49,453 bases of DNA from Rhodospirillaceae bacterium (GCA_037445815.1 JBBIJV010000003.1:1-49453); one strand, 5' to 3'. Shown: positions 9,552-42,372, numbered from the stretch's first letter. Notes: generated from the sequence alone by a model not told the origin. Program-made: numbers and translations.

Positions 9552-11903
9552 GTGCAGACCAGACGACTTGGATTGACCGCCCTGCTGGGCGCGCTGGCCA
9601 CGGGCTGCGGCATGATCGGCAACGACGCGGAGCAGAGCCGCGCGACGGTGGAAAAGGCGTGCCTCGACTGCCACAACTCGGCGGAGCGAACCGCCGGCCT
9701 GAATCTGGAGTCGCGCAACTTCGACGCCGTGGCAGCCGACGCCGAAACCTGGGAGAAGGTGATCCACAAGCTGCGTGCGGGGCTCATGCCGCCGGCGGAC
9801 GGCGGCGCGCCGCTCGATCCCGAAGAGCGCAGCGAGCTCGTCACCTGGCTCGAGAACGAGATCGACGCGCACGCCGAGCTGCACTTGCCGCCCCCGGGCC
9901 TGCACCGCCTGAACCGCACCGAATACTCGAACGCGATCCGCGATCTCTTGGCGCTCGACATCGACGCCACGAAATTCCTGCCCGCCGACGATTCGAGCCA
10001 CGGGTTCGACAACATGGCCGGCACGTTGACGACCTCGCCGGCCCTCATGGAGGCGTACCTCTCCGCAGCCGGCAAAATCAGCCGGCTCGCGATCGGCACC
10101 GAGACCGCGCCGACGCTGGCCGTGTTCGACGCCCCGCACGACACCTCGCAGAACGGCTACATCGAAGGGCTGCCGTTCGGCACGCGCGGCGGCATGTTGA
10201 TCGAGCACGAGTTCCCGGCCGACGGCAACTACGTCTTCACCGTCAAGGGCATGACCGGCTACTTCACGGCCGTGCTCGGCAACGTGCGCGGCGAGCAGCT
10301 CGAGGTTTCGGTCGACGGCAGGCGCGTGTATCTGTTCGACTGGGACAAGGAGATCGCGCCGAACGAAGGCAACGGCGGCCGTACGCCGGAGATCCCGATC
10401 TCGGCCGGCTTCCACAAGATCGGCGTCACGTTCATCGCGACGAGCGATTTGCCGGACACGGGCCTCAACAAGTCGTTCGTCCGCACGATGAACTCGCCGG
10501 GCGCCATCTCGGGCTACACGTTCTACCCGCACGTGGGCCAGGTGTTCATCGAAGGGCCGTTCGACGGCCTCCAGGCCACGAGCACGCAGAGCCGCGAGCG
10601 CATCTTCGAGTGCTATCCCAAGGAGAGCAGCGAGGAGCGCGAGTGTGCGCGCCGAATCATCTCGACGCTCACGACCAAAGCGTTCCGCCGTCCGTCGACC
10701 GAGGCCGACGTCGAGGACATCATGAGCTTCTTCAAGGCGGGCCGCGAAGAGGGCGGCAGCTTCGACTACGGCATCGAGGCGGCGATCCAGCGCATCCTCG
10801 CGGACCCCGAGTTCATCTACCGCTCCGAGATCGAGCCCGAAGACGTCGCTCCAGGCTCGCCTTACCGCATCAGCGACCTCGAGCTCGCTTCGCGGCTCTC
10901 GTTCTTCCTCTGGAGTAGCATTCCGGACGAGGAGCTCATCGAGCTCGCGGCGAGAAACCGCCTGCACGAGGAGAAGGTGCTCGAGCAGCAAGTGGCGCGC
11001 ATGATCGCCGACCCGCGCTCGAACGCGTTCATCGAGAACTTCACGGGGCAGTGGCTGAACGTTCGCGGCATGATGGCCAGCGAGCCGGTCGTCGATCTGT
11101 TCCCGGACTTCGATAGCACCTTGCGGCAAGCGTTTCGCCGCGAGATCGAGCTGTTCTTCGCCAGCGTCATCCACGAAGACCGCAGCATCCTCGATTTGCT
11201 GACCGCGGATTACACGTTCGTCAACGAGCGGCTCGCGAGGCACTACGGCATCCGCGGCGTGTACGGGCCCCAGTTCCGCCGCGTGGAGCTCGGGCCGGAG
11301 CTCGACATGCGCCGCGGGCTTCTCGGCAAGGGCGCCCTGCTCACGATGACGTCCGACGCGGCGCGCACGTCGCCCGTCAAGCGCGGCAAGTGGTACCTCG
11401 AGACCTTCTTGGGTATCGGCCCGCCCGATCCGCCGCCGGGCGTCGAAACGGATCTGACGCCTAACGACGGCGAGGCCCCGAAGACGCTGCGGGCGCGGCT
11501 CGAGGCGCACCGCGTGAACCCGACGTGTGCGTCGTGCCATCAGATCTTCGAGCCGATGGGGCTCGCCATGGAGAATTTCGATGCCGTCGGTGCGTGGCGG
11601 ACGACCGACGCGGGCCAGCCGATCGATCCGACGGGCGTCACGAACGACGGCGTTCCGCTGACGGGCCTCGAAAGCTTGCGCGATTACGCCGTCGCCAACA
11701 GCGAGCTGTTCGCGCAAGCCGTGACGGAGAAATTGCTGACGTATGCGATCGGCCGCGGCTTGGGATACGAGGACATGCCGCTCGTGCGGTCGATTGCGGA
11801 CGACGCCGCCGAGGACGACTATCGGTTCTCGTCGCTCCTCATGGGCGTCATTCAGAGCCCGGCCTTCACGATGAACATGAAGACCGCGGCGAACGAGGAG
11901 TAA
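9552..11903 (+). CDS. DUF1592/DUF1588/DUF1587/DUF1595/DUF1585-type cytochrome c lipoprotein
   Basis: GTG 9552 with lipobox LATGC; CLDCH and CASCH heme-c motifs; family motifs WEKV..KLRAGLMPP, HRLNRTEY, LASRLSFFLWSSIPD, NFTGQWL, RTSPVKRG, ENFDAVG. Confidence 0.9.
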   Translation: MQTRRLGLTALLGALATGCGMIGNDAEQSRATVEKACLDCHNSAERTAGLNLESRNFDAVAADAETWEKVIHKLRAGLMPPADGGAPLDPEERSELVTWLENEIDAHAELHLPPPGLHRLNRTEYSNAIRDLLALDIDATKFLPADDSSHGFDNMAGTLTTSPALMEAYLSAAGKISRLAIGTETAPTLAVFDAPHDTSQNGYIEGLPFGTRGGMLIEHEFPADGNYVFTVKGMTGYFTAVLGNVRGEQLEVSVDGRRVYLFDWDKEIAPNEGNGGRTPEIPISAGFHKIGVTFIATSDLPDTGLNKSFVRTMNSPGAISGYTFYPHVGQVFIEGPFDGLQATSTQSRERIFECYPKESSEERECARRIISTLTTKAFRRPSTEADVEDIMSFFKAGREEGGSFDYGIEAAIQRILADPEFIYRSEIEPEDVAPGSPYRISDLELASRLSFFLWSSIPDEELIELAARNRLHEEKVLEQQVARMIADPRSNAFIENFTGQWLNVRGMMASEPVVDLFPDFDSTLRQAFRREIELFFASVIHEDRSILDLLTADYTFVNERLARHYGIRGVYGPQFRRVELGPELDMRRGLLGKGALLTMTSDAARTSPVKRGKWYLETFLGIGPPDPPPGVETDLTPNDGEAPKTLRARLEAHRVNPTCASCHQIFEPMGLAMENFDAVGAWRTTDAGQPIDPTGVTNDGVPLTGLESLRDYAVANSELFAQAVTEKLLTYAIGRGLGYEDMPLVRSIADDAAEDDYRFSSLLMGVIQSPAFTMNMKTAANEE

Positions 11904-11907
11904 TGCG

Positions 11908-13263
11908 ATGGCGATGTTCATCACGAAGAAGCACATACCACGACGAACGTTCCTGAAGGGCGCAGGCGTGGCTTTGGGCCTCCCGCTGCTCGAGTCGATG
12001 TTTCCCGCTGCGACGGCGCTCGCGCAAGCCGCCGCGGCTCCGCCGCGGCGCTTCTTCGCCGGCTTCGTTCCACACGGCGCGGCACCCGGCTACTGGGTGC
12101 CCGACAAGGAAGGCGCGTTGCCGGCCGAGCTGCCGTATATCTGGCAGCCGCTCGAGCCCTTCCGCCACAGCCTGACGATCCTCACGGGCTTGCACTCGAC
12201 CTCGTCCGAGCCGCCGCCCGGCGAGACCGGCGCCGACCACTGGGTGGCCGCTGCGTTCCTGTGCGCGGAGAAGCCGAAAAAGACGGCGGGCGCCGATGTA
12301 CGCGCCGGCCACACGATCGACCAGATCATCGCGGAGAAGATCGGCCGCGAGACGCTGCTGCCGTCGCTCGAAATGTCGGTCGAGGATCCGGGCTCCGGCG
12401 CCAGCAACTGCGGCGAGGGCTACAGCTGCGTGTACACGAACACGATCTCGTGGGCGTCGCCGACGACGCCGTTGCCGATGGAGCTGAACCCGCAGGTGGT
12501 GTTCGAGCGGCTGTTCGGCAGCGGCAGCACGCCCGAGCAGCGTGTGGCGCGCCGCGAGCGCAATCAAAGCATCCTCGACTCCATCAACAGCAAGATCGCG
12601 CATCTGCGTGCCGAGATCAGCGTTCCGGACCGTTCGCGTCTCGACGCGTTCACGGAGAACGTTCGCGAGATCGAGCGCCGTCTCGAGATCGCCGCGAAGG
12701 CGACGACGGCGGCACCCGAGGATATCGACGTGCCGCCCGGCATTCCGCAGTCGTTCGACGAGCACATCAAGCTGATGTTCGACCTGCTCGCGCTCGCGTT
12801 CCAGGCCGACCTCACGCGGGTCGGCACGCTGCTCTTCGCGCGCGATCTCACGGGACGCCGCTATCCGGAGAGCGAAGCCCCGAACGCGGGCTTCCACGGC
12901 GTGTCGCATCACGGCGAGGACCCGTCGCTGATCAAGGAGCTCGCGAAGATCAACCGCTATCACGTACAGATGGTGGGATACCTGGCCGACAAGCTCTCGA
13001 AAATCGAGGAAGCCGACGGCACGCTGCTCGACCATTCGCTGCTGCTCTACGGCAGCAATATGGGCAACCCGAATCAGCATCTGCACTACGACGTGCCGCA
13101 CATCCTCATCGGCAAGAACCACGGGCGCCTGAAAGGCAACCGCCACCTCGCATATCCCACGAAGACGATCTCGACGGGCAACCTGCTCTTGAGCCTGCTC
13201 GATCAGTTCGATATCCACCGCGACAGCTTCGGCGACAGCACGGGACGACTCGAGAACGTATAG
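11908..13263 (+). CDS. DUF1552 (HXXSHH) family Tat-exported protein
   Basis: Tat motif PRRTFLKGAG..LPLLESM; TIDQIIA, CGEGYSCVYTNTISW, NPQVVFERLFG, FHGVSHH, GDSTG. Confidence 0.92.
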   Translation: MAMFITKKHIPRRTFLKGAGVALGLPLLESMFPAATALAQAAAAPPRRFFAGFVPHGAAPGYWVPDKEGALPAELPYIWQPLEPFRHSLTILTGLHSTSSEPPPGETGADHWVAAAFLCAEKPKKTAGADVRAGHTIDQIIAEKIGRETLLPSLEMSVEDPGSGASNCGEGYSCVYTNTISWASPTTPLPMELNPQVVFERLFGSGSTPEQRVARRERNQSILDSINSKIAHLRAEISVPDRSRLDAFTENVREIERRLEIAAKATTAAPEDIDVPPGIPQSFDEHIKLMFDLLALAFQADLTRVGTLLFARDLTGRRYPESEAPNAGFHGVSHHGEDPSLIKELAKINRYHVQMVGYLADKLSKIEEADGTLLDHSLLLYGSNMGNPNQHLHYDVPHILIGKNHGRLKGNRHLAYPTKTISTGNLLLSLLDQFDIHRDSFGDSTGRLENV

Positions 13264-13267
13264 GCGC

Positions 13268-15109
13268 ATGCGCAACCAGAGACGTGTCGGAACGCGATCG
13301 ATCGTCGGCCTCAAAGCCGTCGCGCTTGCGTGGGCTCTCGCGCTCGCGCAAGCCGCACTCGCGCAGACGGACGTGGCCGACGCCGCCATGCGGCACGACG
13401 TGGAACGGGTGCGCGCGCTCCTGCGGGACGGCGCGGACGTGAACGCCGCGCAACCCGACGGCGCCACGGCACTGCACTGGGCGGCGTACCACCGCGATCC
13501 CGACCTCGCCCGGCTGCTCACCGAAGCGGGTGCCGACGTCTCGGCCGCGAATCGCAACGGCTCGACGCCGATGTGGCTGGCTGCGAGCCAGGGCGACGCC
13601 GCGACGGTGCGCGTTTTGCTCGACGGCGGCGCGGACGCGAACGAGGCGCTCCCGCTCGGCAGGAGACCGCTGATGCTGGCCGCCCGCTCCGGCAGCGTCG
13701 AGGCCGTGCGCGCGTTGCTCGATCGCGGCGCGAACCCGAACGCCCGCGAAGACGCTCGCGGCACCACGGCTCTGATGCAAGCGGCCGATCAAGGCCATGC
13801 CGACGTCATCGAGATTCTCGTCGAGCACGGCGCCGACGTGGCGGCGGTGTCTGCCCCCGTCGTCCGTGACGGGCGCACGGCGGCGCTCGGCAAGTCAGAC
13901 GACCCGCGGCGCGCCGTACGGCGGCAAGTCATCGCGATTCTGTGCGACCAGGAATCGCCGGATTTGAGCAAGCTGCAAGAGCTGATCGCCGCGAGCAGCG
14001 AAGACGCGGTGTTGGCTGCGGCCGCGGGAGAATCGAGCAACGAGTCCGATCCGTGCAACCTCGAACGCGACAACTTGGGGTTCGTGCTCGAAGCGAGCGG
14101 CGGCGGCCGGCGCAACCGCGGGCAGAGGGAGCCCGACGGCGGTGAGATCACGCCGCTCGTCTATGCCGCGCGCGCCGGCCACATCGAGGCCGCCCGCGTG
14201 CTGCTCGAAGCCGGCGCCGACGTGAATCAGGTGACGCGCTACGGCTGGAGCCCGCTGCTCGCCGCTACTCAGAACCGCAATTATCAGATGGGCAAGTTCC
14301 TCATCGAGCACGGCGCCGACGTCAACATCGCAAACAAGGGCGGCTGGACGCCGCTGTACCTCGCCACCGACAACCGCAACCTCGAAGGCGGCGACTACCC
14401 CACGCGCACGCCCGACATGGATCATCTCGAGTACATCAAGCTGCTGCTCGACGCCGGCGCCGACCCGAACGCGCAGTTGATCGAAAGCACAGAGACGCGC
14501 ACGGTTTTCACGAACCAGTGGCTCGATGAGGAAGGCGCGACGGCCTTCCTACGCGCTTCGCAATCCGGCGACCTCGAGCTCATGAAGCTGCTGCTCGAGC
14601 GCGGCGCCGACCCCCACATCTACACGAAGCTCGGCGTCACGCCGCTCGCTGTGGCCGCCGGCATCGGCTGGGTCGAGGGCATCACCTACGAGCATTCGCC
14701 GGAGGAAACGGTCGAGGCCGTCAAGCTGCTGCTCGAGCTCGGCATCGACCCGAACTACCAGGCCGACACGGGACGCGTCGCGCTGCACGGCGCGGCGCAC
14801 AAGGGCGCGACGGAAGTCGTGCGCGTGCTCGTCGCGGCCGGCGCGCGCATGGACATCCGCGACTTCGGCAATACCGACAATCGAGGCAGCCCCGAGCTCG
14901 CGGCGCACACGTGGCTGCCGATCGACTACGCGGACGGGCTCGTGCGCGTGGGCGTGCAGTCTGCGATTGCGCATCCCGAGACTGCGAAGGTGCTGCGCGA
15001 GCTGATGCGCGAAGCGGGGCTCGAGCCGCCCCCGGAAGGACGCACGCTCGAGTCGATCTGCATCGTCGAAGTCTGCTCGCCGGACTACAACCCGATCGAG
15101 ATCAACTGA
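13268..15109 (+). CDS. Secreted ankyrin-repeat protein
   Basis: Signal peptide ...AQAALA-Q; many ankyrin repeats (GATALHWAA, GSTPMWLAA, GTTALMQAA, GWSPLLAA, GWTPLYLA, GVTPLAVAA, GRVALHGAA). Confidence 0.93.
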   Translation: MRNQRRVGTRSIVGLKAVALAWALALAQAALAQTDVADAAMRHDVERVRALLRDGADVNAAQPDGATALHWAAYHRDPDLARLLTEAGADVSAANRNGSTPMWLAASQGDAATVRVLLDGGADANEALPLGRRPLMLAARSGSVEAVRALLDRGANPNAREDARGTTALMQAADQGHADVIEILVEHGADVAAVSAPVVRDGRTAALGKSDDPRRAVRRQVIAILCDQESPDLSKLQELIAASSEDAVLAAAAGESSNESDPCNLERDNLGFVLEASGGGRRNRGQREPDGGEITPLVYAARAGHIEAARVLLEAGADVNQVTRYGWSPLLAATQNRNYQMGKFLIEHGADVNIANKGGWTPLYLATDNRNLEGGDYPTRTPDMDHLEYIKLLLDAGADPNAQLIESTETRTVFTNQWLDEEGATAFLRASQSGDLELMKLLLERGADPHIYTKLGVTPLAVAAGIGWVEGITYEHSPEETVEAVKLLLELGIDPNYQADTGRVALHGAAHKGATEVVRVLVAAGARMDIRDFGNTDNRGSPELAAHTWLPIDYADGLVRVGVQSAIAHPETAKVLRELMREAGLEPPPEGRTLESICIVEVCSPDYNPIEIN

Positions 15110-15278: not shown

Positions 15279-15552
15279 GGTTGTCGCCAGCGGCGCGCCG
15301 CCCGTCCGAGCGGCGCGCAAGTGCAGCCGCATCGTAAATGCAGATCGCTGATTGGCACGGCTGAAGCGAGGTGTCTGATGTGCCGACCGATGGCGTTGCC
15401 CCGTAAACGCAGACCCTGCCAAGCGCTGATCGATGATCGCAGCGCCTTCCTCGTGACTCTCGGGAGCAGGAAGGCCATCGATCGCGGCGGATCGTTGGTG
15501 GTATTTGAATATCGCATTTACAATCACTCTCTATCCGCGTAAGCTATTGAAT

Positions 15553-16737
15553 GTGATTGAGAGGACCGTCTCGAGAATCGTGCTGGAGGCCGCCAGCCGA
15601 GCCCCAGTCGTCGTGTTGACCGGACCGCGGCAGTCGGGCAAGTCGACCCTCTGCGGTGCCTTGTTCCCGGACAAGCCGCTGGTATCGCTCGAAGACCCGG
15701 ACCAACGTGCGTTTGCGTTGACCGACCCGCGAGGCTTTCTCACCCGCTACGCGTCGGGCGCCGTGCTCGATGAGATCCAGCGCGCCCCAGACATCCCGTC
15801 CTACCTGCAAGGTATCGTGGATGCCGACCCCGAGCCTGGACGCTTCGTTCTCACCGGCTCCGAGAATCTCACGTTGAGCGCGACGATCGGGCAGAGCCTC
15901 GCCGGGCGAGCAGCCGTCGTTCACGTACTGCCATGCTCGTATGCCGAAGTTCGCAGGTTCGACTCCGCGCCCACGGACCTCGCCACCGTCCTCTGGTCGG
16001 GCGGCTATCCGCGCATTCACGACCGCAAGCTCGCGCCGAACGCGTGGCTCGCAGACTATGTGCGGACGTACGTCGAGCGCGATCTGCGGCAGATCGTCAA
16101 CGTCACGGACCTCGGCGCCTTCCAAACTTTTCTCGGGCTATGCGCCGGCCGCACGGCGCAAGTGCTCAACGCGTCGAGCCTCGGCAACGACGCCGGCGTG
16201 ACGCATCCCACGGCGCGCCGTTGGCTCTCGATTCTCGAGACGTGCTTCGTAACTCATCTGCTGCGGCCCTTCTATCGCAACCTCGGCAAACGCCTGATCA
16301 AGGCACCGAAGCTCCACTTCTGGGACAGCGGCCTACTGTGCTTCCTGCTCGGTATCCGCGACCCCGAGCAGCTTCACACGCACCCGCTGCGCGGCGCCGT
16401 CTTCGAATCGTGGGTCGTGAGCGAAGTGCAGAAGGAGCTGATCGCCCGCGGGGTGCAACATCAAGCGCTCTACTTCAGGGATCAGAAGGGTCACGAAGTG
16501 GACATGCTCGTCGAGCTCGGCGCTCGCACACTCGGCATCGAGTGCAAGGCCGGAGCGACGTTCCCGAGCGATGCGTTCGCCGAGCTCGAGTTTTTCGCCG
16601 CGGCCGCCCGCAGCGATTCACTGCTCGGAACCCTGATCCCGGCTGTCGTCTATGGCGGCAACGACACTCATCAGCGCAGCGACGGCGCCGCCGTTGCGTG
16701 GTCCGATATCGAGTCTTGGCTCGAACAACTCGTGTGA
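15553..16737 (+). CDS. AAA_14/DUF4143 family ATP-binding protein with C-terminal PD-(D/E)xK-like motif
   Basis: GTG start MIERT; Walker A GPRQSGKST, Walker B LDEIQR, LTGS, GGYP, TYVERDL, KAPKLHFWDSG, EVD...IECK. Confidence 0.92.
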   Translation: MIERTVSRIVLEAASRAPVVVLTGPRQSGKSTLCGALFPDKPLVSLEDPDQRAFALTDPRGFLTRYASGAVLDEIQRAPDIPSYLQGIVDADPEPGRFVLTGSENLTLSATIGQSLAGRAAVVHVLPCSYAEVRRFDSAPTDLATVLWSGGYPRIHDRKLAPNAWLADYVRTYVERDLRQIVNVTDLGAFQTFLGLCAGRTAQVLNASSLGNDAGVTHPTARRWLSILETCFVTHLLRPFYRNLGKRLIKAPKLHFWDSGLLCFLLGIRDPEQLHTHPLRGAVFESWVVSEVQKELIARGVQHQALYFRDQKGHEVDMLVELGARTLGIECKAGATFPSDAFAELEFFAAAARSDSLLGTLIPAVVYGGNDTHQRSDGAAVAWSDIESWLEQLV

Positions 16738-29419: not shown

Positions 29420-30262
29420 ATGAGCGCGCCGTCCGACGAATTCGGCCGCGTGCTCGCCGGCAAGGTGGTCGCCGTGCCGGAGGCACGCCAGCTCGACGTG
29501 CTCGCGAGCCTGCTCGAGCGCCGCGGAGCGAGCGTGCTGCGCTGCCCCCTCGTCGGCATCGCGGACTCGCCCGACGAGCCCGCCGTCGTCGCCTGGATCG
29601 ACCGGCTGATCACCACTCCGCCGGATCTCCTCGTCTTCTACACCGGCGAAGGCGTCGAGCGCCTGGCCGGCTTCGCGCACCGCGCGGGGCGTGGCGCGGC
29701 GTTCGTCGCGGCGCTCGGCCGCACGCGTAAGCTCACGCGCGGCCCGAAGCCGAAGCGGGCGCTGAAGAAGCTCGGCCTCGACGCCGAATATGCGGCGAGC
29801 GAGCCGACGACGGCGGGACTGATCGAGACCGCGAAGAGCATCGCGGCACCGCTCGAGCGCGTCGCGATTCAGCTCTACAGCCGGGAACAAGACCGCCAGC
29901 TCGCCGCCTACTTCGCGGAGCGCGGCGCCGCCGTCGATTGCATCGCACCGTACGTCTACGCTTCGGCGGCCGACGACGAGCGCGTCGTCGCGTTGCTCGA
30001 GGAGATGGCCGCCGGCCGCGTCGATGCCATCGCCTTCACGAGCCAGGCGCAGGTGCAGCGGCTCGTGGAGCTCGCGAAGAGGCGACGGCTCGACACCGTG
30101 CTGCGCACGGGGCTCGGCAAGACGAAGGTAGCGGCCGTCGGCCCCGTCGTGGCGGCCGCGCTGAACGAAGCCGGCTTCCGCGTCGACGCGACGCCGACCG
30201 ACAGCTATTCGATGAAGCCGCTCGTGACGACGCTCTGCGAGCTGCTCGAGAAACGGCCCTAA
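29420..30262 (+). CDS. hemD: Uroporphyrinogen-III synthase
   Basis: PEARQ, FYTGEG, RGPKP, PYVY, DAIAFTS..QV, AVGPV. Confidence 0.85.
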   Translation: MSAPSDEFGRVLAGKVVAVPEARQLDVLASLLERRGASVLRCPLVGIADSPDEPAVVAWIDRLITTPPDLLVFYTGEGVERLAGFAHRAGRGAAFVAALGRTRKLTRGPKPKRALKKLGLDAEYAASEPTTAGLIETAKSIAAPLERVAIQLYSREQDRQLAAYFAERGAAVDCIAPYVYASAADDERVVALLEEMAAGRVDAIAFTSQAQVQRLVELAKRRRLDTVLRTGLGKTKVAAVGPVVAAALNEAGFRVDATPTDSYSMKPLVTTLCELLEKRP

Positions 30263-30753
30263 CGCTTGGCGCGCCGAAGCTCCATGGCCGTAGGCCGGCC
30301 GTCCGCCGCGGGCTGATACCAGACGGAGAAGTCGGAGAGCGCCGTGCGGTAGTCGCCGAGCGGGTCCTTGCTCTCGATCTCGAACGCATCGAAACCCGTC
30401 CGCAGCATGAAGAAGAGCTGCTCGAGCAGCACCTCGCCGACGGCGCGCACCTCTCCCTTGTAGCCGTAACGCTCGCGCAGCAGCCGCGCATAGGAGTACG
30501 CGCGCCCATCGCGAAACTTCGGGAACTCGAGCGCCACGACGGCGAAATACTCGAGATCCGCGGCGATGAGGTCGGGCGGCTGATCGCTGTGCAAGCGAAT
30601 ACCGAGCGGCGTGCCGCGCGCGAGCAGCTCCTCACGGCGGGCCCTCCATTGATCGACGCTGACGATCACGGGACCCGAGGGCGGAATCGCTTCCGCGCCG
30701 CTAGCATCGACGAACGAGCTCGCGACGAGCTCACCGTTCTTCACGAGCGCCAT
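30259..30753 (-). CDS. DUF934 family protein (sulfite-reductase associated)
   Basis: C-terminal part of track ORF 30259..32139; FPKFRDGRAYSYARLLRER, EVRAVGEVL.EQ, RTGFDAF, YQ. Confidence 0.9.
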   Translation of the reverse strand: MALVKNGELVASSFVDASGAEAIPPSGPVIVSVDQWRARREELLARGTPLGIRLHSDQPPDLIAADLEYFAVVALEFPKFRDGRAYSYARLLRERYGYKGEVRAVGEVLLEQLFFMLRTGFDAFEIESKDPLGDYRTALSDFSVWYQPAADGRPTAMELRRAKR

Positions 30754-32420
30754 CAGGCCGCCTGGCTTTGGTCGCCGTAAACGGCGCTCTTGAACGGCTC
30801 TATGCCGACGCGCCGATACGTATCGAGGAAGCGCTCGTTCTGCTCGCGCATGACGAGATACGTGTCGACGATCTTGCGAATCGCGGCCGGCACCTCGGCT
30901 TGCGGCAGTCCCGGGCCGAGCCGGTCGCCGAGCGAGGCGTGCTGATCCGACGAGCCGCCGAGCGTGAGCTGGAAGAACTCCTGGCCGCGCTTGTCGACGC
31001 CCAGGATGCCGATGTGGCCGACGTGATGATGGCCGCAGGCGTTCATACAGCCCGAGATGTTGATCGTGAATTGGCCGATCTTCTGCAGCTCGTCGAGATC
31101 CGTGAACGCGCGGCCGATGTCCTGCGCTATCGGAATCGAGCGCGCGTTGGCGAGCGCGCAGAAGTCCAAGCCCGGGCAGCAGATGATGTCCGACAGCAAC
31201 CCCAAGTTCGGCGTCGCGAGCTCGAGAGCGGCGAGCTTGTGCCACAGCTCGTAGAGATCGGACTGCTTGACGTCGACGAAAACCAGGTTCTGCCGGTGGC
31301 TCACGCGGATCTCGCCCATGCTGTACCGGTCCGCGAGGTCGGCGACGGCGTCCATCTTGTCGGCCGTGATGTCGCCGGGCGCCTTGCCGGGCGCCTTCAG
31401 CGATAGGTTCACGATGGCGTAGCCCGGCACCTTGTGCTCGACGACGTTGCCGCGCATCCAGCGATCGAACGCGCGGTCGCCGGCGCGCAGCTTCTCGAGC
31501 AGCTCCGTCTCGTCGGCGAGCTTCTCGTACTGCGGCGGCGCGAAGTACGCGTTGATGCGCGCGACCTCTTCGTGGGGAACCTTCAGCGCGCCGTTCTTCG
31601 TGAACTCCCAGTCCTCGTCGACGAGCGCGCGGTACTTGTCGATGCCCATCTGGTTCACGATGATCTTGATGCGCGCCTTGTGGATGTTGTCGCGCCGCCC
31701 GTGCATGTTGTAAACGCGCAGGATCGACTCGACGTACGACAACAAGTCCTCCGGCGCCAGCCACTTCCTGATCGTCTGGCCGATGTACGGCGTGCGGCCG
31801 AGCCCTCCGCCCACGAGCACCTCGAAGCCGATCTCGCCCTGCTCGTTCTTGTGCATCCGCAGCCCGATGTCGTGCACGGCCACGGCCGCACGGTCGTTCG
31901 GCGAGCCCGTCACGGCGATCTTGAACTTGCGCGGTAGGTACGAGAACTCCGGGTGCAGGAACGAGTACTGGCGCAGTAGCTCGCAGTACACGCGCGGATC
32001 GGCAAGCTCGTCCTTCGCGCGCCCCGCGTACTGGTCCGACGTGATGTTGCGGACGCAGTTGCCCGACGACTGTATGCTCGTGACCTCGACCTCGGCGAGG
32101 TGCTCGAGGATGTCCGGCACCTGCTCGAGCTTGATCCAATTGAACTGCAAGTTCTGCCGCGTCGTGAAGTGACCGTAGTTCTTGTCGTACGCGCGCGCGA
32201 GATAGGCGAACTTGCGCATCTGCCGCGAAGACAACGTGCCGTAGGGCACGTTGATGCGCAGCATGTACGCGTGCAGCTGCAGGTACAGCCCGTTCATGAG
32301 CCGCAGCGGGCGGAACTGATCCTCGGTGAGCTCGCCGTTCAAGCGGCGCTTCACCTGGCGGCGAAACTGCGCGACGCGCTCCTTGACGAAGCGGGCGTCG
32401 AATTCATCGTAGCGATACAT
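30753..32420 (-). CDS. cysI: Sulfite reductase hemoprotein (Pseudomonas-type CysI; nitrite/sulfite reductase family)
   Basis: MYRYDEFD, GLYLQLHAYMLR, HFTTRQN, LPRKFKIA; siroheme/4Fe-4S ligand motifs CPGLDFC and SGCMNACG. Confidence 0.92.
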   Translation of the reverse strand: MYRYDEFDARFVKERVAQFRRQVKRRLNGELTEDQFRPLRLMNGLYLQLHAYMLRINVPYGTLSSRQMRKFAYLARAYDKNYGHFTTRQNLQFNWIKLEQVPDILEHLAEVEVTSIQSSGNCVRNITSDQYAGRAKDELADPRVYCELLRQYSFLHPEFSYLPRKFKIAVTGSPNDRAAVAVHDIGLRMHKNEQGEIGFEVLVGGGLGRTPYIGQTIRKWLAPEDLLSYVESILRVYNMHGRRDNIHKARIKIIVNQMGIDKYRALVDEDWEFTKNGALKVPHEEVARINAYFAPPQYEKLADETELLEKLRAGDRAFDRWMRGNVVEHKVPGYAIVNLSLKAPGKAPGDITADKMDAVADLADRYSMGEIRVSHRQNLVFVDVKQSDLYELWHKLAALELATPNLGLLSDIICCPGLDFCALANARSIPIAQDIGRAFTDLDELQKIGQFTINISGCMNACGHHHVGHIGILGVDKRGQEFFQLTLGGSSDQHASLGDRLGPGLPQAEVPAAIRKIVDTYLVMREQNERFLDTYRRVGIEPFKSAVYGDQSQAA

Positions 32421-39592: not shown

Positions 39593-41305
39593 TTACTTGA
39601 CGAACCCCAGCGCCTCGAGCTTTACGATGATGCGGTGCGCGGACATATCCGGCGTCGCGTCTGTCGTGTCGAGCCGCATCTCGGGATTCTCGGGCACCTC
39701 GTACGGATCGCTGATGCCCGTGAACTGCTTCAGGATGCCCGCGCGCGCCTTCGCATAGAGACCCTTGCGGTCGCGCTGCTCGCAAACCTCGAGCGGCGTG
39801 GCCACGTGCACCTCGATGAAGCCGCCGAGCGGCTCGATCATCTCGCGCACGAGCTTGCGCGTCGCGGCGTACGGAGCGATCGGGGCGCAGATCGCGATGC
39901 CGCCGTTCTTCGTGATCTCGCTCGCGACGTAACCGATGCGCTGGATGTTGAGATCGCGGTGCTCCTTCGAGAAGCCGAGCTCGCTCGACAAGTGCTTGCG
40001 CACGAGATCGCCGTCGAGCAGCGTCACGGGCCGGCCGCCCATCTCCATGAGCTTCACCATCAGCGCGTTCGCCACCGTGGACTTGCCCGAGCCCGAGAGG
40101 CCCGTAAAGAAGACCGTAAAGCCTTGCTTGTGGCGCGGCGGATGCGTGCGGCGCAGCTCGGCGACGACGGCCGGGAACGAGAACCACTCCGGAATCTCGG
40201 CGCCTTCCTGGAGCCGCCGGCGCAGCTCGGTGCCCGAGATGTCGAGCGTGCGAGCGCCGGGCTCGATCTCGTCCTCCGGGAAATACTGAGCCTTGTCCTC
40301 GACATACACCATGTTCTTGAACGGCACCATGGCGATGTCGAGCTCCTTTTCGAGCTCTTTCATGAGCCGCTGCGCGTCGTACGGGCCGTAGAACGGCTTG
40401 CCGTTCGAGTCCTTGCCGGGGCCCGCGTGGTCGCGGCCGACGATGAAGTGGGTGCAGCCGTAGTTCTTGCGGATGATCGCGTGCCAAACCGCCTCGCGCG
40501 GCCCGCCCATACGCATCGCGAGCGGCAGCAAGCTCAATGCCGTCGTCTGCTCCGGATAGACCTTGAGCAGGTGCTCGTAGCAGCGCACGCGCGTGAAGTG
40601 ATCGACGTCGCCGGGCTTGGTCATGCCGACCACGGGGTGAATCAACAGATTCGCTTCGACGTCCTTGGCGGCGCGGAACGTGAGCTCTTGATGCGCGCGG
40701 TGCATCGGATTGCGCGTCTGGAACGCCACGATGCGGCGCCAGCCGAGCTTCTGGAAGCGATCTCGAAGCTCTTTAGGAGTATCTCGCAAGTGCTTGAAAT
40801 CGTAATGAACAGGAGCCTCGACGCCGCGCAGCTTGCCGCCGAGATAAACCTCGTTGCTGCGCGTCTTCAAGTAGCTCACGCCCGGATGCTTGGTGTCGGT
40901 CGTGCCAAACACCGACTTGGCCTCGAGCTCGCGATCGGGGCGGTACACGCTCGAGATCTCCATCGTCGCCGTCAGGACGCCCTCGCCGTCGCGCAGCGCG
41001 ATCGTATCGCCCTCCTTGAGCTTCTCGGCGAACTGCGGCGTCACGTCGAGCGTGATCGGCATCGGCCAGATCACGCCGCTCGTCAGGTGCATCTTCGAGA
41101 GCACGCTCTGGTAGTCGGCTTCGTCCAAGAAACCCTCGAGCGGCGAGAACGCGCCGTTCAACAGCATCTCGATGTCGCAGAGCTGGCGCATCGTGAGATC
41201 CCAGGAAGGCAGATCTCGCGCGCGGGCCTTTTCCTTCGCGACGCCCGCTTCGTCGAGATACAAGTTTTTCAGTGTCCCGCCGTGGGGATCCTTCAATGAA
41301 CCCAT
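39593..41305 (-). CDS. Bifunctional sulfate adenylyltransferase / adenylyl-sulfate kinase (Sat-CysC fusion)
   Basis: PHGG, GAFSPL.GF, QTRNPMHRAH, GRDHAG; APS-kinase P-loop GLSGSGKST, LDGD, FTGISDPYE. Confidence 0.95.
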   Translation of the reverse strand: MGSLKDPHGGTLKNLYLDEAGVAKEKARARDLPSWDLTMRQLCDIEMLLNGAFSPLEGFLDEADYQSVLSKMHLTSGVIWPMPITLDVTPQFAEKLKEGDTIALRDGEGVLTATMEISSVYRPDRELEAKSVFGTTDTKHPGVSYLKTRSNEVYLGGKLRGVEAPVHYDFKHLRDTPKELRDRFQKLGWRRIVAFQTRNPMHRAHQELTFRAAKDVEANLLIHPVVGMTKPGDVDHFTRVRCYEHLLKVYPEQTTALSLLPLAMRMGGPREAVWHAIIRKNYGCTHFIVGRDHAGPGKDSNGKPFYGPYDAQRLMKELEKELDIAMVPFKNMVYVEDKAQYFPEDEIEPGARTLDISGTELRRRLQEGAEIPEWFSFPAVVAELRRTHPPRHKQGFTVFFTGLSGSGKSTVANALMVKLMEMGGRPVTLLDGDLVRKHLSSELGFSKEHRDLNIQRIGYVASEITKNGGIAICAPIAPYAATRKLVREMIEPLGGFIEVHVATPLEVCEQRDRKGLYAKARAGILKQFTGISDPYEVPENPEMRLDTTDATPDMSAHRIIVKLEALGFVK

Positions 41306-41391
41306 TCGCTTTGCTCCCGTGTGAATCCAATTGCGCGCTCTCACGCTCGGACCGTCGGCCTCGAGCCGCAGCGCTCGAAATAGTGTTTCGC

Positions 41392-42372
41392 TCAAGCGGC
41401 CGATAATTGCTCGGCCGTCGCGCGGATCGTCGCGGCGTTGATGGCGGGCAGGTACTGCGCTTGATGCTCTCGCCATTTCAAGGATTTCTTGATGATCGAC
41501 TCGAGGTTCGGCCGCTTGCCCTCGGGCCCCTCGCCTTTGCCGATACCGCCGCCGAGCTCGACGACGGTATCGATTCCGGCATCCACCGCCGTGTTGATGC
41601 ACGACACCCACTTCACCGGATTGAAGAGCTGGAAAAACAACCGCGAGCGGATCGCGTTGCTCGCGGACTCGTGCAGCTTGCCCGTGTAGTTCGACAGCGT
41701 GTCGACTTCGAGCGGCGCGAACTCCGTCTGCTCGAGCACCTTCCGAAACTCTTGCGCGGCACCGACCATCAGGTATGTGTGGAACGCGCCTTCGGTATTG
41801 AGCCGCACGCCGCGCTTCTGCGGGTACAGCGCGGCCATCTCCGCCGCCAAGGCATCGAGGTCGGCCGTCTCGCCGGCGACCACGGTCTGATCGGGCAGAT
41901 TGCAGCCGCCGATGCCGCAAAAGTACTTGTCGGCCAGCGCCCGAGCCTCGGGCAGCTCGAGCGTCGTCGCGAGCATCCCGCCGCGGCCGTGCTCGCTCAT
42001 GAGCTCGCCGCGCCGCTGCACGAGCTTGAGTGCGGCTTCGAACTCGAGCGCGCCGGCCATCACTAGCGCGGAGTACTCGCCCAAGCTGTGGCCCGCGCCC
42101 AAAGACGGCCGCACGCGGTCGCCGACGAGGCTGCGGAACGACTCGAGGCAAGCGATCTCGTGTGTCAGCAGCGCGGGCTGCGTGAAGCGGGTCTTGTTGA
42201 TCTCGTCGCGCGGGTCGCGGAACGAAAGCTCGGCCATGTCGTACCCAACGACGGCGCTTGCGCGCGCGTAAAGCTCCTTGGCGACGGGAAACTCGTCGAC
42301 GAGATCGGAGCCCATTCCCCGGTACTGAGACCCCTGCCCCGGGAAGACGAATAGAACCTTCTTGTCGGCCAC
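41392..42372 (-). CDS. fabD: ACP S-malonyltransferase (FabD-like), stand-alone
   Basis: FPGQGSQ, TQPAL, GHSLGEY, RG.LM, GAFH, PVKW. Confidence 0.88.
   Translation of the reverse strand: MADKKVLFVFPGQGSQYRGMGSDLVDEFPVAKELYARASAVVGYDMAELSFRDPRDEINKTRFTQPALLTHEIACLESFRSLVGDRVRPSLGAGHSLGEYSALVMAGALEFEAALKLVQRRGELMSEHGRGGMLATTLELPEARALADKYFCGIGGCNLPDQTVVAGETADLDALAAEMAALYPQKRGVRLNTEGAFHTYLMVGAAQEFRKVLEQTEFAPLEVDTLSNYTGKLHESASNAIRSRLFFQLFNPVKWVSCINTAVDAGIDTVVELGGGIGKGEGPEGKRPNLESIIKKSLKWREHQAQYLPAINAATIRATAEQLSAA

Follow-up and report, generated by a model that had tools for sequence, protein, structure and literature searches.

The question raised by this locus is what is built by three adjoining genes, all with predicted export signals, in a genome of Rhodospirillaceae bacterium. 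The window (the whole stretch of DNA that was analysed) covers 49,453 nucleotides, and the three same-strand open reading frames are separated by two gaps of 4 bp:

9552..11903, + strand: gene 1, exported two-haem c protein of the PSCyt3/PSD (DUF1592) family, 783 aa (Pfam; AlphaFold2 model)
11908..13263, + strand: gene 2, DUF1552 (HXXSHH) protein with predicted alkaline-phosphatase/sulfatase fold, 451 aa (Pfam; model; Foldseek)
13268..15109, + strand: gene 3, Sec-type exported ankyrin-repeat protein, 613 aa (Pfam; adjacency)

Gene 1 starts with GTG and an identical 783-aa protein exists in a public record; the signal peptides of genes 1-3 were called from motif and hydropathy only. The original prediction had described this layout together with a lipobox and two CxxCH motifs in gene 1 (LATG-C19; CLDCH and CASCH), a Tat signal, a C-x5-C pair and HGVSHH in gene 2 (RRTFLK, C168/C174, H330-H335) and a Sec-type signal with ankyrin repeats in gene 3, all of which were recovered. 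It did not mention the sulfatase/phosphatase fold of gene 2, the CBM-like domain of gene 1 or the 15-fold paralogy. By their sequences, genes 1 and 2 are assigned to the known but uncharacterised PSCyt3/PSD (DUF1592) + DUF1552 pair; no paper on the trio of PSCyt3/PSD, DUF1552 and ankyrin genes was found in the literature.

Conservation of the module

The genome holds 15 copies of DUF1552, and members of the genus hold 13-47. The three genes stand together at 11 of the 15 copies, the other 4 stopping within ~210 bases of a contig end. Gene 1 lies immediately upstream of DUF1552 in 77/80 related loci and an ankyrin gene adjoins 73/80, so that the predicted ankyrin adjacency holds within this branch. 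Ankyrin open reading frames of the gene-3 type are found within 3 kb of a module in 12 of 18 cases, such flanks making up 1.7% of the genome; this clustering, and the retention of the trio in 11 of 15 copies, indicate more than chance. Among 10 trios of the same genome the distances of genes 1 and 2 co-vary (r 0.82), and those of gene 3 track them. These observations support the trio as a single conserved exported module.

Gene 2: a predicted sulfatase-like fold with a probable histidine site

The following features were located in gene 2:

11908..12024, + strand: Tat signal with twin-arginine motif RRTFLK (sequence)
12238..12240, + strand: His111, at or one residue from the sulfatase/phosphatase nucleophile position (alignment via DUF1501)
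12424..12681, + strand: helical insert, residues 173-258, contributing the larger part of the interface predicted with gene 1
12895..12912, + strand: HGVSHH motif, His330, His334 and His335 (conservation)
13078..13080, + strand: His391, fourth conserved histidine (145/146)

Gene 2 matches HXXSHH/DUF1552 (PF07586) at E 3e-82, with 277 bits against a cut-off of 30. The Tat motif was found in 72/77 trios, and the signal is unusually conserved among paralogues (65%). No solved relative of gene 2 was found by sequence. Its structure model (pLDDT 92.5) resembles the sulfatase 7stt (Z 16.0, rmsd 3.8, 267 aligned residues); 68 chains reached Z of at least 8, all 50 among the matches listed being alkaline-phosphatase-superfamily proteins, and Foldseek gave E 4e-5, with 56 matches at E <= 0.001. 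The model shares its core with sulfatases, NPPs and phosphoethanolamine transferases (Z up to 16.0, rmsd 3.4-4.6, ~225-280 aligned), and the predicted fold of gene 2 is accordingly classed as the alkaline-phosphatase/sulfatase alpha/beta/alpha core. Compared directly by profile, DUF1552 and sulfatases gave no significant match (P 3%); an indirect route leads from DUF1552 to DUF1501 (P 94-97%) and from DUF1501 to sulfatases (P 91%).

Along this route His111, kept in 140/141 non-gap rows, aligns with the His of DUF1501, which in turn aligns with the sulfatase Cys. H330 and H334 occur in 146/146 aligned clusters of relatives and H335 in 130/146, and the four histidines H111, H330, H334 and H391 are also retained in distant branches. 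The conserved residues of gene 2 fall at active-site positions of the alkaline phosphatase superfamily, to which identity is 8-14%, but the Ser/Thr/Cys(formylglycine) nucleophile, the first-strand Asp and S-D-H-G are missing; four His are present instead, plus the helical insert that is predicted to dock on the cytochrome. The first-strand Asp position reads P-N/H-G in DUF1552, and the S-D-H-G position reads S-(G70,N25,S16,E16)-(M63,I46,L33) among 146 relatives and S-N-M-G in gene 2. A formylglycine sulfatase was rejected as an identity for gene 2 (no C/S-x-P-x-R nucleophile motif, with His there; no first-strand Asp-Asp; no sulfatase Pfam match), and so was a canonical alkaline phosphatase or NPP, whose hallmarks, a Ser/Thr nucleophile and a two-zinc site with S-D-H-G ligands, are both lacking.

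The metal-binding role first proposed for gene 2 stands in part. The four near-invariant histidines are likely to form a metal site, their clustering in space being judged from alignment position and not from coordinates, while the pair C168-x5-C174, each Cys of which is retained in 101/146 aligned relatives, is a dispensable, local trait and not a family-wide one.

Gene 1: a two-haem protein with a variable sandwich

Six regions were delimited in gene 1:

9552..9608, + strand: lipoprotein-type signal ending LATG-C19 (sequence; 116/119 close orthologues)
9624..9872, + strand: N-terminal class I cytochrome c domain (conservation; fold match)
9900..10094, + strand: PSD3 (DUF1587), predicted as the main surface on which the gene-2 protein docks (Pfam; interface residues 115-175)
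10104..10571, + strand: inserted beta-sandwich resembling CBM6/CBM35/CBM36 (fold comparison)
10644..10829, + strand: PSD5 (DUF1595), second predicted docking surface (Pfam; interface residues 389-428)
10869..11867, + strand: helical core PSD4-PSCyt3-PSD2, with CxxCH 659-663 (11526-11540) and His653 (11508-11510) (conservation)

The Pfam order is PSCyt1/Cytochrome_CBB3, PSD3, PSD5, PSD4 (DUF1592), PSCyt3 and PSD2, all above curated cut-offs, and five of these domains (E 6e-47 to 2e-18) place the protein in PSCyt3/PSD group III. The AlphaFold2 model has pLDDT 92.4 and pTM 0.92; by sequence no solved relative was found apart from weak cytochrome c matches. The two haem motifs are CLDCH at residues 37-41 (9660-9674) and CASCH at 659-663. 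C37, C40, H41 and M79 are each kept in 135/135 non-gap rows, Met79 being the likely distal ligand of a His/Met haem, and the N-terminal domain resembles a domain of the cytochrome c peroxidase YhjA (Z 9.6, rmsd 2.2, 85 aligned). C659, C662 and H663 are present in 136/136 rows and H653 in 134/136. With two invariant CxxCH motifs, a predicted export signal and a haem attachment system in the genome (ccmF, as CcmF_C, was found, as was tatC), gene 1 would qualify as a c-type cytochrome. No fold match was found for the helical core, which was barely covered and had no separate model of its own.

Membrane anchoring, another part of the original prediction, fits close orthologues, 116/119 of which carry the lipobox, and not the wider set, where a loose regular expression found it in 13/76 loci; by eye it is present in 6/14 paralogues of gene 1. 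Lipid anchoring thus appears to be a trait of the orthologue group and not of the whole family.

The sandwich (residues 185-340) is closest to CBM6/35/36 (best Z 9.3, rmsd 2.5-2.7, 104-107 aligned), followed by TNF/C1q and other jelly rolls (Z ~7), and gene 1 has no CBM match in Pfam. It is the least conserved region of gene 1 among paralogues (28% vs 43-56%), and on the model it is a likely specificity module. The listing of a wheat-straw metasecretome includes a DUF1592 protein with a CBM2, according to the part of the record available (PMC6004670).

Predicted complex and possible electron-transfer partners

Prediction of genes 1 and 2 together, with the N-terminal cytochrome omitted and no metal, gave a score of 0.70 against 0.01 for the best control, a mark reached by 116/157 solved complexes and 2/215 mismatched pairs. 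The runs share at least 77% of contacts, and partner pLDDT is at least 85. Genes 1 and 2 are therefore predicted to bind directly as a two-subunit complex. The confident interface, as listed, includes neither H111, H330, H334 and H391 nor the C-terminal haem motif, residues unnamed in the list being uncertain, and direct haem-to-metal contact is thus unsupported by the model. Of what had been proposed for structure prediction, an association was obtained for genes 1 and 2, and the proximity of haem to the His cluster was not. The interface shows no conservation beyond the average (0.55 vs 0.63 in gene 1, 0.53 vs 0.51 in gene 2).

Gene neighbourhoods provide a separate source of evidence. The Sphingobium-type branch lacks the N-terminal cytochrome domain and has only the C-terminal CxxCH (36/36), which is the family-wide haem motif. 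In this branch a cytochrome c' gene lies directly downstream in 25/34 loci with room (11/17 clusters at 85% identity, the other 6/17 having no adjoining cytochrome c'), and b561 is nearby in 15/34 loci (8/17 clusters). Cytochrome c' and b561 are a common gene pair independently of the module. Among 4 cases examined, one relative has the same core fused to a glucose/sorbosone dehydrogenase, to three CBM26 domains and to additional cytochromes. The neighbourhoods and fusions hint at electron transfer independently of the complex model, and the proposed haem electron relay finds its support here and not in the interface. No conserved neighbour pointing to a substrate was found around the modules.

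The ankyrin protein

Gene 3 has a hydrophobic N-terminus and matches Ank_2 at E 1e-78 in 6 stretches; in its alignment the conserved columns are ankyrin-type, and no invariant His, Cys or Tyr was found. Identity as a Dot/Icm ankyrin effector was rejected (best 133 bits against an NCBIfam cut-off of 600). As a part of the module it was upheld within its own branch, by adjacency and co-divergence, and not in distant sets, where an ankyrin gene occurs in 1/20, 0/45 and 0/4 loci. Its absence there places it outside the catalytic core, and an obligate three-protein system was rejected on the same counts. Ankyrin helpers of haem enzymes are described in the available portions of two sources: AnkB, with catalase KatB, as periplasmic and required for full activity, and Cj1386 with KatA (PMC12754779, PMC11442138). 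In these systems the ankyrin gene is co-transcribed with that of a haem enzyme, as would hold for gene 3; unlike them, the gene-3 type is much longer (about 500-610 aa), its partner is not a catalase, and it has no invariant Tyr/His like the haem ligand of Cj1386. Gene 3 is likely a scaffold or assembly helper in its own branch of the family.

Relation to known systems

The closest system is the pair of PSCyt3/PSD group III (PF07627 with PF07631, PF07624, PF07626 and PF07637) and DUF1552 (PF07586) in Planctomycetota and Verrucomicrobiota, whose function is given as unknown in the text available; its CBM appendages prompted the suggestion of a role with carbohydrates (He et al., 2017; PMC5615132). 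The PSCyt/PSD domains were first named by Studholme et al. (2004), as cited in the accessible parts of PMC2754498 and PMC3542564. The same Pfam domains occur in the same order, with gene 1 adjoining gene 2; the present module differs in its gammaproteobacterial genus, its 13-47 copies and its third, ankyrin gene. The word "ankyrin" is absent from the bioRxiv text and the searched supplements of He et al. (2017), and neither the fold nor the altered His site nor the heterodimer predicted here was found in the parts of that work available (PMC5615132).

DUF1501 (PF07394) pairs with PSCyt2/PSD1 (DUF1549/DUF1553) or with DUF1800, and an electron-transport role is proposed in the sections available (Kamneva et al., 2012; PMC3542564; PMC5122149). 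It is homologous to DUF1552 and has a Tat signal, a His at the nucleophile position and a large partner often with c-type haems. It differs in having W-D-x-H where DUF1552 has H-x3-H-H, and the N-terminal cytochrome region is all that its partners convincingly have in common with gene 1 (P 96.8%), comparison of the helical cores giving P under 9% and DUF1800 P under 1%. No CxxCH was found in DUF1800 proteins (7/7 open reading frames checked), so a c-type haem partner need not always accompany this fold family.

Proposed mechanism and alternatives

On the predicted structures, genes 1 and 2 likely form a so far undescribed exported redox enzyme. The reading that we favour, with somewhat less than even confidence, is a periplasmic metal-dependent oxidoreductase fed electrons through haem, which would activate O2 against dissolved organics and would likely be assembled with the help of the ankyrin protein. 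Gene 2 would fold, take up Cu or Fe and be exported by Tat, and gene 1 would be exported by Sec and haem-loaded by the Ccm system. H111, H330, H334 and H391 would make one mononuclear site in place of the nucleophile and the first-zinc ligands. The shuttle of electrons to this site would be the N-terminal His/Met cytochrome, whose tether lies at the edge of the predicted interface; cytochrome c' and b561 would stand in where that domain is missing. With electrons from the haems the metal site would activate oxygen for attack on dissolved organics, likely sugars, and the ankyrin protein would likely aid assembly. Specificity would be set by the CBM-like sandwich of gene 1 and by the loops on either side of H111, the two regions in which paralogue divergence concentrates (28% and 18-22%); this is the explanation proposed for the 13-47 diverged copies per genome. 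The direction of electron flow is favoured because of known chemistry: where a Cu site of 3-4 His is supplied by a haem donor, the enzyme is a reductase or a monooxygenase, as in copper nitrite reductase, peptidylglycine monooxygenase and LPMO served by cellobiose dehydrogenase, and dehydrogenases require an organic or Mo cofactor. In the cellobiose dehydrogenase-LPMO system electrons reach a His-ligated metal by way of a mobile cytochrome, and carbohydrate-binding modules are attached; the module resembles it in proposed logic only, with no relation in sequence or fold.

The strongest alternative, itself unlikely, is that gene 2 is still a hydrolase (of phospho-, sulfo- or lactone esters) that acts through a nucleophilic His or through zinc bound by 3 His, gene 1 being a scaffold or substrate binder whose haems are coupled or regulatory. 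All 50 fold matches listed are superfamily hydrolases, transferases or inactive relatives, H111 occupies the nucleophile position, the predicted interface lies away from the haem motif, and DUF1501 can pair with DUF1800 proteins that have no CxxCH; PSCyt genes are reported beside sulfatases (PMC5615132, in part), and exported metallo-beta-lactamase-fold genes are enriched beside modules (5/23). However, the canonical Ser/Thr/Cys nucleophile and the second-metal ligands are lost, the C-terminal CxxCH is invariant in both 136/136 and 36/36, and the fused cytochrome is lost where separate cytochrome genes are gained.

Opposite flow is unlikely as well: substrate electrons would pass in a periplasmic dehydrogenase or oxidase from the His site to the C-terminal haem (likely bis-His), the His/Met cytochrome and the respiratory chain. 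Pfam, Foldseek and fold comparison gave neither a motif nor a fold for flavin, PQQ or Mo cofactor, and a lone His-bound metal is not known to act as a hydride acceptor unless a protein-derived radical forms; the dehydrogenase fused to the same cytochromes in one case would supply electrons, not need them. The haem ligands H653/H663 and H41/M79 nevertheless suggest a low-to-high potential chain, bis-His haem having the lower potential and His/Met haem the higher, cytochrome c' and b561 could equally carry electrons inward, and the 32 open reading frames of PQQ-dehydrogenase type in the genome form a similar paralogous periplasmic repertoire.

It is quite improbable that the catalytic centre is the C-terminal haem of the gene-1 helical core, acting as a peroxidase or as a maturase that modifies gene 2, with gene 2 binding substrate or metal. 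The core has no fold match (though barely covered), a near-invariant polar ring surrounds the haem region (E531, Y565, R587, R611, H653, E674, R683), and YhjA is the best fold match of the N-terminal domain; that match, however, spans an ordinary class I cytochrome domain only, conservation of the four gene-2 histidines equals that of the haem motif, and one-to-one pairing and co-divergence of every copy fit two subunits better than a maturase. A non-enzymatic device that handles or senses metal or haem, such as a redox sensor, a chaperone or a buffer for metal, is very improbable: the site is His-rich, DUF6152 neighbours begin with His-His and ankyrin proteins act elsewhere as haem-trafficking or catalase helpers (PMC11442138, PMC12754779, as far as available), but DUF6152 is not enriched beside modules in the genome (2/58), no conserved membrane signalling gene was found near them, the ankyrin protein has no invariant ligand residue, and varied carbohydrate-binding and dehydrogenase fusions with 13-47 diverged copies suggest many substrates.

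Implications

Held still more tentatively than the favoured oxidoreductase is the wider claim that an alkaline-phosphatase/sulfatase scaffold was turned into an O2-activating Cu or Fe four-His enzyme with its own haem electron supply and dozens of substrate-specific copies. No earlier redox enzyme class is known to us in the alkaline phosphatase superfamily, in which the module would be the first. If the claim is true, the module would follow the cellobiose-dehydrogenase/LPMO logic as a self-contained system in the periplasm, attacking dissolved organic carbon, with copies spread over uncultured Gammaproteobacteria, Acidobacteriota and PVC bacteria.

Organization of the Locus

The three genes originally noted to lie together on one strand were recovered at the same coordinates, with gaps of 4 bp between genes 1 and 2 and between genes 2 and 3.

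Genes of the trio (window coordinates)
9552-11903, + strand: gene 1, ORF; two-haem c protein of the PSCyt3/PSD (DUF1592) type, 783 aa, with the lipobox LATG-C19 and CxxCH at 37 and 659; Pfam
11908-13263, + strand: gene 2, ORF; HXXSHH/DUF1552 protein, 451 aa; Pfam
13268-15109, + strand: gene 3, ORF; ankyrin-repeat protein, 613 aa; Pfam

The Pfam domains of gene 1 follow the order PSCyt1/CBB3-type cytochrome, PSD3, PSD5, PSD4, PSCyt3 and PSD2. The genes that flank the trio, a homogentisate dioxygenase upstream and an AAA_14/DUF4143 ATPase downstream (Pfam), are unrelated to it. A recent horizontal arrival is not indicated, as the GC3 of the trio (0.87-0.91) is like that of the flanking genes (0.90-0.91). 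A scan for promoters and terminators gave 0 and 3 sites, respectively, which is the chance level. Four sequence runs of uncertain type contained short fragments of relatives only and were set aside as evidence on expression. The ATPase gene (15505-16737) has a GC3 of 0.79, below that of its neighbors, is barely covered by the contigs of relatives and is likely a later insertion. Elsewhere in the window, a - strand ORF (39596-42151) encodes a fusion of ATP sulfurylase and APS kinase, and sulfite-reductase-like and DUF934 genes occur at about 30259-32420. The source assembly is 88% complete, ccmF and tatC are found in the genome, and the close homologs that bear names are labelled Gammaproteobacteria.

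Paralogy and Distribution

The source genome encodes 15 DUF1552 ORFs, 16 gene-1 ORFs, of which one is fragmentary, and 18 related ankyrin ORFs. DUF1552 is matched in each of the other 22 genomes in the genus (13-47 matches per genome), in 2 of 16 genomes that represent other families of the order, and over the cut-off in 4 of 300 genomes sampled from the rest of the phylum, each with a single copy; a profile search retrieved 6,239 clusters (50% identity) at E <= 1e-30. One DUF1552 copy of the source genome (L005:109-1434, G000:C27) is found at a contig end without an upstream gene 1, and its partner may lie downstream, as in several PVC loci. Two cultured strains carry the module: a complete trio, left without annotation in the plasmid table, is present in Novosphingobium sp. 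KACC 22771 (L210:9428-14626, NZ_CP117882.1), and the short form in Sphingobium herbicidovorans MH.

Predicted Fold and Conserved Histidines of Gene 2

The AlphaFold2 model of gene 2 (pLDDT 92.5, from 146 sequences) matches the alkaline-phosphatase superfamily fold. Foldseek returned 56 matches at E <= 0.001 with sulfatases on top, and a wide structural search gave a sulfatase at Z 16.0 (rmsd 3.8, 267 residues) and an NPP at Z 15.9. Searched against the PDB, the single sequence had no match and the profile a best, non-significant E of 1.5, and the NCBIfam search gave nothing over the cut-off. By profile alignment, DUF1552 was related to DUF1501 (P 94-97%) and DUF1501 to sulfatases (P 91%), the DUF1501 His falling on the sulfatase Cys; the direct DUF1552-sulfatase alignment (7 sequences) was not significant (P 3%), though it gave the same mapping, and neither was the comparison with NPP (one NPP sequence).

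Four histidines of gene 2 are near-invariant, namely H111 (140/141), H330 and H334 (146/146 each) and H391 (145/146), and they are also kept in members from Sphingobium, Planctomyces, Bacteroidota and distant Verrucomicrobiota. From their spacing, the secondary structure and the motifs of the superfamily, we take H330, H334 and H391 to occupy first-zinc ligand positions. The first strand ends in P-N/H-G instead of Asp, and the S-D-H-G position, which reads S-N-M-G in this gene 2, is mostly non-ligating in relatives. To judge from the sequence, the hydrolase chemistry of the superfamily is not kept in gene 2. A hydrolase with a His nucleophile, which would agree with the fold and with the His-for-Cys mapping and would have to operate with these altered positions, is unlikely.

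Among paralogs, the most diverged parts of gene 2 are the loops around H111 (18-22%). The C-x5-C pair was rejected as a family-defining feature, since C168 and C174 each occur in 101/146 sequences and are gone from whole branches, and H335 was rejected as well. The Tat leader (window 11908-12024) is 65% conserved among paralogs, above every part of the mature protein, and has a fixed L-P-x-L-(D/E)-x-M-x-P beyond the hydrophobic region; a factor may recognize the leader, or it may stay in place.

Domains of Gene 1

The model of gene 1 (pLDDT 92.4) contains a class I cytochrome domain, matched to YhjA at Z 9.6, and a jelly-roll insert, the sandwich, closest to CBM36/CBM6/CBM35 (Z 9.3, as against about 7 for unrelated jelly rolls). 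The whole-chain fold search recovered the cytochrome and sandwich domains only and barely probed the helical core, for which homology to DUF1553 or DUF1800 was not supported. Against the PDB, the single sequence had no match and the profile gave weak cytochrome c matches. The two CxxCH motifs and M79 do not vary, and H653 is present in 134/136. The sandwich is the most diverged part among paralogs (28% vs 43-56%). The lipobox was rejected as family-defining, being found in 116/119 close orthologs and in 13/76 wider loci. Homolog searches also pointed, no more than as leads, to DUF1501 (0.82) and to a cluster with CBM60 (0.84).

Larger versions of gene 1 were also detected. A 2,157-aa fusion (L263:720-7190, G300:C1) combines three CBM26, a glucose/sorbosone dehydrogenase and additional cytochromes, with four CxxCH in all, and ends in the PSD3-PSD5-PSD4-PSCyt3-PSD2 core, followed by a DUF1552 partner that keeps the four His; in two other genomes gene 1 has added Ig-like or DUF2231 domains. 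One homolog of 1,862 aa with Ig-like repeats (L264:8359-13944) lacks the His before the C-terminal CxxCH that nearly all others have. A DUF2231 membrane domain is fused to the N-terminus of gene 1 in two unrelated genomes (L261:3674-6955 and L215:6360-9998) and may provide a further attachment to the membrane. The tables on a wheat-straw metasecretome (PMC6004670) include a DUF1592 protein that bears CBM2.

Predicted Complex of Genes 1 and 2

Genes 1 and 2 are predicted to bind each other, in line with the interaction originally proposed. Residues 114-185 and 340-778 of gene 1 were co-folded with residues 45-451 of gene 2 and one haem, the N-terminal cytochrome being left out for size. The complex score was 0.70 (runs 0.66, 0.71 and 0.70), against 0.01 for the best of three controls; of 157 solved complexes 116 attain this score mark, as do 2 of 215 mismatched pairs, counts that are rough here because own alignments and a ligand were used. 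The runs share at least 77% of contacts, with a pLDDT of at least 85 for the partners. In the models, gene 2 contacts PSD3 and PSD5 of gene 1 through its helical insert (173-258) and through residues 127-129 and 155-161, and the interface residues are not more conserved than the remainder.

The expectation that a haem would lie close to the His cluster is not supported by the listed interface, which includes none of the four His and not the C-terminal haem motif (CxxCH 659-663). The N-terminal cytochrome ends a few residues before contacts 115-117, so its haem would probably be the likelier of the two to come within reach of gene 2.

The Ankyrin Gene

An ankyrin gene adjoins 11 of the 15 DUF1552 copies of the source genome, and the remaining 4 end at most about 210 bases from a contig end. 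A wider scan, seeded with the paralogs of the source genome, gave at least 590 loci. The best 80 of these (mostly Acidobacteriota, plus Gammaproteobacteria and single records from other groups) are biased to the branch of the source genome; the ankyrin gene directly follows the pair in 57, precedes it in 10, is divergent in 6, lies nearby in 2 and is missing from 5, 3 of the latter being cut by a contig end. Farther away it occurs in 1 of 20 regions chosen from 30 matches of two PVC-labelled genomes, in 0 of 45 Sphingobium-type loci (relatives with a short gene 1 without the fused N-terminal cytochrome), in 0 of 4 single-copy loci and in 1 of 6 annotated plasmid records examined (of 15). The conserved adjacency thus holds within its own branch and fails in distant ones, which indicates a core of two genes, with the ankyrin gene as an accessory dedicated to it in one branch.

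Protein distances of gene 3 correlate with those of genes 1 and 2 (r 0.73 and 0.84, 10 trios of the source genome; 0.81 and 0.86 across 77 trios overall). Co-duplication alone predicts such a correlation, which is therefore evidence that the genes remained together and not that their products are in contact. The conserved columns of gene 3 are ankyrin-type residues, no invariant His, Cys or Tyr was found in the 77 trios, and a C-terminal Cys pair was rejected as family-defining (18/77).

Other Branches and Neighboring Genes

In the Sphingobium-type branch the short gene 1 has the C-terminal CxxCH only (36/36). Cytochrome c' directly follows in 25 of the 34 loci with room, and b561 is present in 15 of 34; clusters at 85% identity (11/17 and 8/17, respectively) are the fairer count, because similar metagenomes contributed many of the loci. 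The same cytochrome c' arrangement was seen in one further randomly sampled genome. The short gene 1 is immediately preceded by the gene for an exported protein of ~410 aa that matches no Pfam family (L213:9075-10331, L212:9057-10277 and most of L220-L259). A divergent AraC regulator frequently lies ahead of that gene, and the ~410-aa protein may be a third partner in place of the ankyrin found here.

The search for a fourth conserved gene covered 830 neighbor ORFs of 99 loci, the top cluster being a merge of three abundant families. Near modules of the source genome, DUF6152 (2/58) and PQQ dehydrogenases (2/32) were not enriched, an EYxC-type family was weakly enriched (5/72) and metallo-beta-lactamase-fold genes modestly so (5/23 within 3 kb). 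Exported genes of the latter fold adjoin or interrupt modules at L008:4851-5861, L001:11893-12813, L009:7368-8450 and L012:3-824. By approximate profile counts, the source genome has large exported families: 72 ORFs with a C-terminal EYxC-type motif and no family name (e.g., L019:2072-3460), 58 DUF6152 ORFs with His-His right after the signal, and 32 PQQ-dehydrogenase-type ORFs.

Possible Function of the Module

Genes 1 and 2 would constitute a periplasmic heterodimeric oxidoreductase, in which a His-bound Cu or Fe site on gene 2, with electrons supplied through the haems, would activate O2 on dissolved organics. The sandwich and the active-site loops would set specificity, and the ankyrin protein would aid assembly once the subunits arrive by different export routes. 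This proposal as a whole is tentative, at somewhat under an even chance; that the module is a redox enzyme, in either direction, is modestly probable. The direction of electron flow is argued from general chemistry, and a dehydrogenase, which would have the same components with electrons running the opposite way, is unlikely.

DUF1501 relatives also pair with DUF1800 proteins, CxxCH being absent in 7/7, and this pairing counts against a strict need for haem. A catalytic haem or a maturase is improbable, and a non-enzymatic module very improbable.

The DUF1552 pair has been described as a conserved arrangement without a known function (PMC5615132), and the sister DUF1501 module likewise (PMC3542564). 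In a literature search covering few subscription journals, neither a DUF1552-ankyrin link nor a redox member of the alkaline-phosphatase/sulfatase fold was found. Added here are a predicted heterodimer together with its geometry, the limits on the range of the ankyrin gene, the cytochrome c'/b561 substitution and the cultured test strains.

Concluding Remarks

No function is assigned to the very large DUF1552 family, of which the source genus carries 13-47 loci per genome. The fold, the four His, the predicted heterodimer and the minimal cytochrome c'/b561 version make the question testable in cultured strains. A His-nucleophile hydrolase, if true, would also be new chemistry for the superfamily; the redox reading, if true, would add a new class of enzymes built on a hydrolase scaffold and a hidden route by which organic carbon is oxidized.
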